A stretch of 63,381 nucleotides of DNA, filler included, from Reclinomonas americana ATCC 50394 (Eukaryota): the NCBI GenBank assembly GCA_048213135.1. It is 8 parts of 3 records of this genome, joined end to end, with 100 filler letters (N's around TTAATTAATTAA, not from the genome) between each part and the next. Parts side by side here need not be neighbours in the genome. Positions count along the whole stretch, not along the records: positions 3,968 to 9,275 come from PS015159.1; positions 9,376 to 27,830 come from PS015159.1; 6 more parts are not named here. One strand, 5' to 3'. This document shows, piece after piece, positions 8,842 through 10,330 of this stretch (position 1 is the stretch's first letter; every line of letters begins with the position of its first letter). The position numbers and the translations under genes were made by a program. The notes under the pieces were generated by a model. It saw nothing but the letters and a program-made list of their open reading frames with translations. It was not told the DNA's origin and did no database searches.

Positions 8842-9274
8842 ATGATTCCTCTCGCCAGGTTCTTCTCCTTTCCACTCGCCCTCCCTCACACCGCTCTCAC
8901 CTGCAATCACCACCACCGCGCAGCTCCCCATTCCGTTGGTACGTGGTGCGCGTCAAGAGACTGCAAGCATTGTCGGCTGCTCGTGTGCTCTCGCGTGTCG
9001 TGCAAGACTTTGCATGGCACGACTACATCAAGGTGACAACGCACACATGCCCTCTCCCCTCCCTTCCCTCATCACACCCTGCCCACCAGGAGGTCACCGT
9101 GCCCTCCACTCGCCATCTGCGATTCGTGCGTGGCTCCGTGCAGAGCACCGAGGTGCCTGCATTCAAGCATCACGTGCTGGTGAACATGCGCGCCGATCCG
9201 AGTGCCTTTATGCTGCTGTACAAGTACCGCGAGTTCGAGGTCCTGCGACGCAACTTGGGCGCAGTGCCGCGCTC
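8842..9274 (+). CDS. Bacterial-type NusG N-terminal (NGN) domain protein, exons 1-3 (runs into gap)
   Basis: Spliced product MIPLAS|SPFRWYVVRVKRLQALSAARVLSRVVQDFAWHDYIK|EVTVPSTRHLRFVRGSVQSTEVPAFKHHVLVNMRADPSAFMLL.. aligns by eye with NusG RWYVV..EVxVP..G..ERKFFPGYVLVQM. GT-AG introns at ~8859-8923 and ~9033-9089. Confidence 0.75.
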
Positions 9275-9375
9275 ANNNNNNNNNNNNNNNNNNNNNNNNN
9301 NNNNNNNNNNNNNNNNNNNTTAATTAATTAANNNNNNNNNNNNNNNNNNNNNNNNNNNNNNNNNNNNNNNNNNNN

Positions 9376-10036
9376 GGCAATGGCTGCCCCGGCGCCCACC
9401 AAGAAGGCCGCCAAGCCGGCCGAGCAGGAGCTGGAGGATGCCTTTGGCTTTGTGTCGGTGTCGGATCGCAATCCAGTATCGGGTGATGGTGAGAGGAGGA
9501 GAGAGGCAAACAGGGGAAAGAGCAGCAGTAGCTCACTTGCGCACTCTCTCTATCCCTCTCTCTCTCTCTCTCCAGACTTGTTCATGGTTCCGGAGGACGC
9601 CAAGAAAAAGTCGTCGATCATGAGTCTGTTTGACGAGAAGCCAGCGCCCGGTGCGCAAGTGCCGCCCGGACAGATGGCTCCCGCAGGAGCTCCGCAGCAC
9701 CACTTTGCGGGCATGATGGCGCCGGCTGGTGCGCGCCCGCCAATGGGATTCGCCGGGCAGCCGATGATGATGATGCCGCCGGGAGGCATGCCGATGATGG
9801 GAGGGGCGCAGCCGGCATTTGCAGGCATGATGGCTCAGCCGATGATGATGGGCATGCCGATGGGAATGGCCATGCCCGTGCAGAGCGGGTACGCCGGCAT
9901 GATGCAGAGCGGGTACGCCGGCATGATGCAGGCGCCGCAGGGTGGCATGATGCAGCCGCAAATGATGGGTGGCGGCATGGGAATGGGCATGGGCATGAAT
10001 ATGGGCATGGGCTACGGCGGTGGCTTCCCGCGCTGA
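9376..10036 (+). CDS. C-terminal exons of SMAP-type ArfGAP (on an apparently inverted contig)
   Basis: KKSSIMSLFD resembles the SMAP KDSILSLY motif, followed by a long Met/Gly/Pro/Gln-rich tail ending GGFPR*. Confidence 0.65.
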
Positions 10037-10201
10037 GGCGGACCCACTGCGGAAGACGCATGCCGATAGAGAGAAACATTTGATTGCTGGCTTGCTCTTT
10101 TCTCCGACCTCCTGCTTCCGCCTTTTCCACCCCTTTTTTTGCGCGTGTGTGTGTATGTGCTGCTTGCTGCATAGTGTATATGCGACATTATTTTCGCTGT
10201 T

Positions 10202-10330
10202 TTATGTCTTGGTGGTGGGTGATGGTGAAGCAGATGTGCTGTTTGGCTTGAGTCCCTCGTGCTCGGCCAGTCGCGCCATGAGCGCCTCTGGCCGATGTCC
10301 TCGAACCAGCAACGCGTCTACCTCGTCATC
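10202..10330 (-). CDS. Probable last exon of the NusG-like gene (on the inverted contig)
   Basis: Pyrimidine tract and CAG acceptor, then DDEVDALLVRGHRPEALMARLAEHEGLKPNSTSASPSPTTKT*. DDEVDALL matches the NGN terminal helix (E. coli ISDKEVDAIM). Confidence 0.6.
   Translation of the reverse strand, partial: DDEVDALLVRGHRPEALMARLAEHEGLKPNSTSASPSPTTKT

Follow-up and report, generated by a model that had tools for sequence, protein, structure and literature searches.

Does the nuclear DNA of a protist encode a bacterial-type NusG that has been reduced to its NGN domain, and if so, what would such a protein act on? The question is raised by a locus in a 63,381-nucleotide stretch of DNA from Reclinomonas americana ATCC 50394 (assembly GCA_048213135.1; the whole stretch is called the window here), in which three plus-strand exons of a NusG-like gene run into an artificial linker between scaffolds and a candidate fourth exon lies on the minus strand beyond it. 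The locus is a genuine spliced nuclear gene with a product of about 150 residues, and sequence comparison makes it very probable that this product is an NGN homologue. As to its partner, the reading that we favour, with a probability of about 0.45, is that the protein serves an organellar bacterial-type multisubunit RNA polymerase.

Homology of the spliced gene to bacterial NusG

Direct reading of the sequence bore out the three plus-strand exons of the preliminary description (Table 1), which when joined translate as MIPLAS.SPFRWYVVRV ... EVTVP ... FKHHVLVNM. Two hidden Markov models (HMMs), one for the NGN domain and one for the full-length protein, were built from 31 proteobacterial NusG sequences and one RfaH. 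NusG genes were collected through a phylum-wide family search, which found them in 80 of the 81 genomes sampled from a single bacterial phylum and was used because a search from the E. coli NusG locus had returned only close gammaproteobacterial relatives. Spliced exons 1–3 scored 22.0 bits with the NGN HMM and 28.9 bits with the full-length HMM in a gap-free alignment to HMM positions 7–84 (about 78 residues), compared with 9.5 and 13.4 bits, split into two fragments, for the form that reads through intron 2; the best of 2000 shuffles reached 7.6 and 6.6 bits. As excision of intron 2 restores colinearity with bacterial NusG, this result speaks for the intron as well as for the homology, and it demonstrates the position of intron 2. 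The earlier claim of a spliced, eukaryotic gene is upheld by this restored alignment together with the GT..AG introns. Even without splicing, the NusG open reading frame (ORF) ranked first with both profiles (8.2 and 12.0 bits) among the 1219 stop-free ORFs of at least 30 amino acids in the window, the runners-up scoring 4.0 and 2.9 bits.

Pfam, PHROGs, NCBIfam and PDB sequences were searched with the read-through translation, in which 19 residues come from the intron. In Pfam, the NusG family (PF02357) was the sole family at E ≤ 10 (17.5 bits, E 0.0062, profile positions 2–64 of 93), and the NGN family of Spt5 (PF03439) gave no match at the same cutoff. The best library match was PHROG 6386, “transcription antiterminator” (E 6.4e-5), a profile of 179 positions spanning the NGN and a C-terminal part, of which only positions 13–89 were matched. 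When the spliced protein and its one relative (P0003, described below) were aligned to the NGN alignment with hhalign, the match extended over 79 columns and had a probability of 95.1% (P 3.4e-8); E. coli NusG is 25% identical in these 79 columns, which contain no gap. By ESM features, the ten best matches with a family assignment all belonged to the NusG family or its clan; among these, the three clusters listed, with representatives of 89–125 amino acids, scored 0.87–0.88, and values below 0.9 have the strength of a lead only. An AlphaFold model made from two sequences was of low confidence (pLDDT 47.3, pTM 0.40), with its elements in the order strand-helix-strand-strand-strand-strand-helix-strand, which we take to be the order of the NGN. 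A Foldseek search with this model placed bacterial NusG chains at ranks 1–4 and 6–11, the best being 8syi_G (E 3.2e-3).

We call the NGN bacterial in type because the long bacterial hairpin that links the VxVP strand to the F...VLVxM strand can be aligned gap-free, and by these alignments it appears to be a highly diverged member of that type and not an Spt5. The preliminary description had made the same assignment and had named profile comparison and structure prediction as ways of checking it; the sole Pfam family, the PHROG match, the hhalign probability and the hairpin all agree with it, NusG being matched and the Spt5 NGN not, with a fold model of the low confidence given above. A phylogeny with alphaproteobacterial and cyanobacterial NusG, which had also been proposed, would not resolve, since identity of about 25% over about 80 columns is too low.

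A chance resemblance, or a pseudogene in decay that yields no NGN protein, might be suspected from the sub-threshold Pfam match and the low-confidence model. We consider this very improbable, as four methods converge on NusG, removal of the intron restores a gap-free alignment, the frame is open through all exons with a coding-like composition at third codon positions, and an exon is conserved in a relative.

The surrounding DNA and the composition of the gene were also examined. Outside its N-filled gaps the window has a G+C content of about 55–60%, and its introns are short, of the GT..AG type and rich in C/T at their 3′ ends; it is nuclear DNA of an intron-rich eukaryote whose G+C content is about 57%. 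The introns of the NusG-like gene are of the same GT..AG style as those of the neighbouring genes. For exon 2, exon 3 and the candidate exon 4, G+C content at third codon positions (GC3) is 0.67, 0.79 and 0.60, respectively; the introns and the sequence ahead of exon 1 have values of 0.49–0.63, and the neighbours (an exon of the upstream gene and the Met-rich tail, both described below) 0.80–0.81. The composition of intron 1 is not coding-like. Both intron 2 and the intron of the Met-rich tail are multiples of three and stop-free, and the read-through ORFs therefore appear continuous, which masks the splicing.

In order to find relatives, a full HMMER pass was made over 1,835,955,588 representative proteins, yielding two matches, P0002 and P0003, and retrieving no plant or algal NusG, for which the protein is too diverged. 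P0002, a repeat protein of 2445 amino acids, had no aligned stretch and was taken as spurious. P0003 is a metagenomic protein of 98 amino acids on a 1819-nucleotide contig listed under ENA, and resembles what prokaryotic gene calling would make of a eukaryotic exon: its sequence is unrelated and of low complexity up to the intron 2 boundary and then 38–40% identical through exon 3. Its alignment to the NGN HMM, at 9.1 bits (best of 2000 shuffles, 5.8), is in register with that of the window protein, and it weakly matches PHROG 6386 (E 0.46). The parts best kept between the two proteins are the β-hairpin and the next strand (VRG, VP.F..H.LV.M). These alignments demonstrate conservation in one other, eukaryote-like sequence, which puts the family in at least two organisms; it was not seen elsewhere in the collections searched. 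A word-indexed protein search found nothing with the read-through protein and P0003 only with the two-sequence alignment. Among JGI metagenome contigs, 79 pattern matches with the alignment and 293 with P0003 included none that was confirmed, and the same was true of 50 pattern matches in IMG/VR.

The common intron position bears on the age of the gene. A small NGN-only gene could have been gained recently from a bacterium or phage, with introns added later and no organelle ancestry, and the nearest ESM clusters are indeed small NusG-family proteins of Bacillota, Bacteroidota and tailed phages, while the PHROG antiterminator family outscores the Pfam NusG family. We judge such a transfer decidedly unlikely. 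The gene has at least two to three spliceosomal introns, and it must be old in its lineage because one intron position is common to a relative of only 38–40% identity; the collections searched hold no close bacterial or viral relative; and origin and present function are in any case separate questions.

The 3′ end of the gene and the question of a KOW domain

The window contains seven identical 100-nucleotide linkers, each made of 44 N, TTAATTAATTAA and 44 N, and it is a chain of separate scaffolds of 1–27 kb each rather than a continuous sequence; further N gaps of given size occur within the scaffolds. Because the linkers are artificial and join separate scaffolds, adjacency and orientation across them are not facts of the assembly. 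This matters here, as the reading frame of exon 3 is still open where N begins at 9276, two residues short of the motif of the last NGN helix in bacteria (E. coli ...PISDKEVDAIM).

The preliminary description had noted a minus-strand exon beginning DDEVDALL and stopping after 42 amino acids, and that flipping the contig 9376–10386 would put it after the NusG exons. Both observations were confirmed: with the contig flipped, this candidate exon 4 lies on the plus strand directly after the linker, and it would comprise the last NGN helix followed by a Ser/Thr/Pro tail, with no KOW. Appended with a gap of two residues, it added 2.2 bits with the NGN HMM and 3.3 bits with the full-length HMM, and hmmalign placed DDEVDALL in NGN match columns where the profile consensus is EKEVEKIL. 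Of the 1781 peptides in the window that lie behind an acceptor-like YAG and are free of stops, it ranked second and third. Among the five best scores listed for 1000 shuffles of the exon, four (NGN) and two (full-length) were as high as the real one. The 56-nucleotide intron piece ahead of it is close to the full intron size in this gene (57 and 65 nucleotides), and what is missing between exons 3 and 4 would be about two codons and a few intron bases. A direct overlap of the flipped contig ends was looked for by eye, and the only candidate was an 8-nucleotide match with one indel and no donor, which we regard as chance. Nor did the window offer another ORF that might supply a KOW, all others scoring 2.9 bits or less with the full-length profile.

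On this basis we infer that exon 4 is probably part of the gene, which would make the product an NGN without a KOW. The earlier description of the protein as “NGN-only, no KOW” thus stands in part: the exon is in register, adds to the score with both profiles and ranks near the top of its class, and the join is made only across the linker.

The gene could instead have another 3′ end, exon 3 continuing into unassembled sequence, where a KOW exon would be possible, or into the Met/Gly/Pro-rich tail on the plus strand beyond the linker, with the DDEVDALL exon then belonging to a minus-strand ArfGAP gene. That gene starts near 11440 and is cut by a gap of 544 N at profile position 48 of 117, just upstream of the DDEVDALL exon, so that no flip would be needed. 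The linker is artificial, and exon 4 taken alone is not significant (−1.6 bits, no Pfam family). In addition, a peptide MCEQEVDARL on the minus strand from 41715, also behind an acceptor-like site, reached 27.8 bits compared with 24.2 for exon 4; it was taken as a chance fit, and because an unrelated peptide scores above exon 4, the last-helix motif alone is not proof. The Met-rich tail also counts in favour of this reading, since no homologue of it, from ArfGAPs or otherwise, was found among 7997 longer candidates and there was no usable ESM match. Against this reading, exon 4 occurs exactly at the spot where it is needed, two residues past exon 3, and the intron piece with a few added bases has the usual size for the gene. 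The DDEVDALL exon has no ArfGap match in Pfam. With no tail, the ArfGAP would have about 190 residues, which is unusually few, and ArfGAPs of the SMAP type can have tails rich in Met. Taken together, we regard a different 3′ end as doubtful.

The contig 9376–10386, about 1 kb long, is probably misoriented in its scaffold. Its flip would let the Met-rich tail continue the ArfGAP gene, and the ArfGAP and NusG-like genes would then converge, with 165 nucleotides between their stops. Standard annotation does not see the NusG-like gene, since a scaffold break and this probably misoriented contig cut it apart.

Possible partners of the protein

What the protein does is, above all, something that we infer. 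If its partner is an organellar bacterial-type RNA polymerase, it would act as a stand-alone NGN, binding across the polymerase cleft to the β′ clamp helices and the β gate loop or lobe, where it would suppress pausing and raise processivity; in the absence of a KOW, it would not couple the polymerase to Rho or to ribosomal protein S10. NGN domains alone are described as binding the clamp helices and gate loop and as favouring pause-free synthesis (PMC7593976).

Several results weigh against this reading. In the family searches, the read-through form did not reach the gathering threshold of PF02357 (22.2 bits); Pfam returned 0 families for exon 2, exon 3 and P0003 taken singly, neither the read-through protein nor either of the two exons matched a family of NCBIfam, and the PDB sequence search gave 0 matches at E ≤ 10. 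The AlphaFold model is of low confidence, and no Foldseek match to it had an E of 0.001 or better. The join of exons 3 and 4 spans an artificial linker and requires a misoriented contig, to which the weak score of exon 4 alone and the higher-scoring peptide from 41715 are to be added. The hydrophobic patch formed by F65-P66-G67-Y68 in E. coli reads F-K-H-H here and F-R-T-H in P0003.

The 5′ end of the gene adds to these points. Exon 1 is the least certain part of the gene, with an atypical donor, CAG/GTTCTT, that is the least consensus-like compared with GTGACA and GTGAGA in the region. There are five ATG/GT pairs from which exon 2 is entered in frame, the other four using the ATG at 8748 or 8759, and all five spliced start models place at most 16 residues ahead of the RWYVV strand; no targeting peptide was found in any of them. 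An unspliced start at ATG 8748 would provide 59 extra Arg/Ser-rich residues, a possible presequence. This stretch is not coding-like, with a flat codon-position composition and a GC3 of 0.49–0.50.

The change from FPGY to FKHH, already pointed out in the preliminary description, was confirmed in the profile alignments. In E. coli NusG, F65L and Y68H are described as reducing binding to the elongation complex (PMC5314768), and because Y68H weakened that affinity, the His of FKHH that aligns with Y68 counts against polymerase binding. The GF.G turn of the bacterial NGN has been lost as well. Hydrophobic positions of the core are retained, and surface motifs have changed.

These features would suit a repurposed relic, in which the NGN fold was kept and the polymerase partner lost, the organelle using a phage-type enzyme. 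Partners proposed for such a protein are RNA or DNA, the mitoribosome or an assembly factor, and a nuclear complex. We treat a repurposed NGN as a serious rival because the patch motif is altered and no targeting peptide is evident, and hold it to be somewhat unlikely all the same. FPGY is replaced in both known members, with a His at the place of Y68 in each, the GF.G turn is lost, there is no KOW and no evident presequence, the hydrophobic core has outlasted the surface motifs, and the family is extremely rare, with one true relative among the 1,835,955,588 representatives. On the other hand, the β-hairpin and following strand are the elements best conserved between the two members, and in bacteria these face the polymerase and the DNA; moreover, no result points to any other partner.

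A more far-reaching proposal is that a bacterial-type polymerase of mitochondria, as in jakobids, has this nucleus-encoded protein as its NusG, or that the protein is a fossil of such machinery in a lineage that has switched polymerases. In either case it would be a surviving part of the ancestral alphaproteobacterial elongation apparatus of mitochondria, cut down to the NGN. We think this proposal unlikely.

Comparison with known systems and the rest of the window

The protein shares with the NGN of bacterial NusG (PF02357; E. coli residues ~5–115) the RWYVV strand, a helix, the VxVP strand, the hairpin, the F...VLVxM strand and a helix, all with the same spacing, and the last-helix motif falls in register if exon 4 is joined. 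It differs from bacterial NusG in having no KOW in the proposed model, in reading FKHH for FPGY, in the loss of the GF.G turn, and in being encoded in nuclear DNA with spliceosomal introns. RfaH and other NusG paralogues, along with phage antiterminators such as PHROG 6386, likewise have a diverged NGN in which the fold is kept and surface residues are changed; in contrast to what is proposed here, they act on the polymerase of a bacterial host. Small NGN-only proteins of bacteria and phages, found as clusters in the ESM Atlas, resemble it in size and one-domain architecture and are its nearest neighbours by features (0.87–0.88), and differ in being prokaryotic or viral and having no introns. 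Compared with Spt5 (PF03439), the protein is far smaller, has the long bacterial hairpin, and shows no acidic N-terminus, KOW repeats or CTR. The NGN of Spt5 is described as belonging to the same superfamily as that of NusG and as binding the same polymerase site (PMC7593976).

The nearest described case is AtNusG of Arabidopsis, where the gene for a bacterial-type NusG likewise lies in the nucleus of a eukaryote. We take AtNusG to retain both a KOW domain and a transit peptide, whereas the protein here appears to have neither; in E. coli NusG, linking transcription to translation is the role of the KOW domain. AtNusG is described as a nucleus-encoded, bacterial-type protein of the chloroplast nucleoid that associates with the plastid-encoded polymerase and couples transcription to translation (PMC9262611).

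For jakobids, the account of the Andalucia godoyi nuclear genome names a mitochondrial homologue of GreA/GreB, itself diverged, that goes with the bacterial-type polymerase, and its main text has no word starting with “Nus”, although the supplements might list one (PMC7050145). The same account gives introns in 12% of 864 characterised genes, which are those of candidate mitochondrial proteins (PMC7050145), whereas all three genes described here carry several introns. In the literature searched, NusG, jakobid and mitochondrial were not found together in any report.

An intron-bearing, NGN-only NusG with altered residues in the polymerase patch and a single detectable relative is unusual in a protist. 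It could serve an organellar bacterial-type polymerase as a minimal elongation factor, or be an NGN that has left transcription. If the host is a jakobid or a relative of one, NusG would be added to the few transcription factors of bacteria that are known to have been kept for use in mitochondria, and the switch from bacterial-type to phage-type mitochondrial transcription would become more testable. Interest in the protein would rise sharply if the host has a mitochondrial bacterial-type polymerase.

Table 1. Features of the NusG-like locus, its neighbours and the linkers; positions are those of the window.
Feature	Position	Strand	Remarks
Putative exon 1	8842-8858	+	ATG and 14 nt, phase 2
Intron 1	8859-8923	+	65 nt, pyrimidine-rich; GT at 8859, acceptor AG at 8922-8923 (ends CAG)
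Exon 2	8924-9032	+	NGN strand β1 (RWYVV) and helix α1; matches NGN HMM positions 7-40
Intron 2	9033-9089	+	57 nt, GTGACA...CCAG, in frame, stop-free
Exon 3	9090-9275	+	EVTVP strand, β-hairpin, FKHH-VLVNM strand, helix α2; 3′ end open
Artificial scaffold linker	9276-9375	.	One of the seven; straddled by the NusG-like gene; no true distance or orientation implied
3′ part of intron before candidate exon 4	10386-10331	-	56-nt pyrimidine tract ending CAG; reaches the end of contig 9376-10386
Candidate terminal exon 4	10330-10202	-	DDEVDALL..., 42 codons (10330-10205), stop 10204-10202
Met/Gly/Pro-rich C-terminal tail of neighbouring gene	9377-10036	+	In-frame 87-nt intron 9489-9575; GC3 0.80
N-terminal exons of ArfGAP gene	~11440-11330, ~11008-10931	-	Pfam PF01412, 43.7 bits (E 3.5e-11) for one exon and 18.6 bits (E 0.002) for the other
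Multi-exon gene with ADH_N and ADH_zinc_N_2	~6450-8574	+	E 5.8e-7 and E 1.8e-7, respectively; directly upstream of the NusG-like gene
100-nt linkers (starts)	3868, 9276, 27831, 32058, 59128, 60663, 61866

The multi-exon gene upstream ends in a sequence resembling mitochondrial trans-2-enoyl-CoA reductase, and we presume it to be MECR-like. No tRNAs were found in the window, and Rfam gave one 5S rRNA. This is a full-length 5S rRNA gene at 8097–8216 on the plus strand (RF00001, 103.2 bits), followed by a T-run; it has the same strand as the MECR-like gene and apparently lies within its last intron, the final exon starting near 8283.

A Pfam scan of 253 ORFs of the window returned only ADH/MECR-like, NHL, REJ and fibronectin type III (fn3) domains, with almost no other ORF matched. 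The NHL repeat (E 2.4e-6) lies at 30593–31108 on the plus strand. The REJ (E 2.2e-10) and fn3 (E 1.3e-8 and 7.2e-13) matches lie at 45262–47966 on the minus strand, and together they suggest a gene on that strand for a very large extracellular protein.

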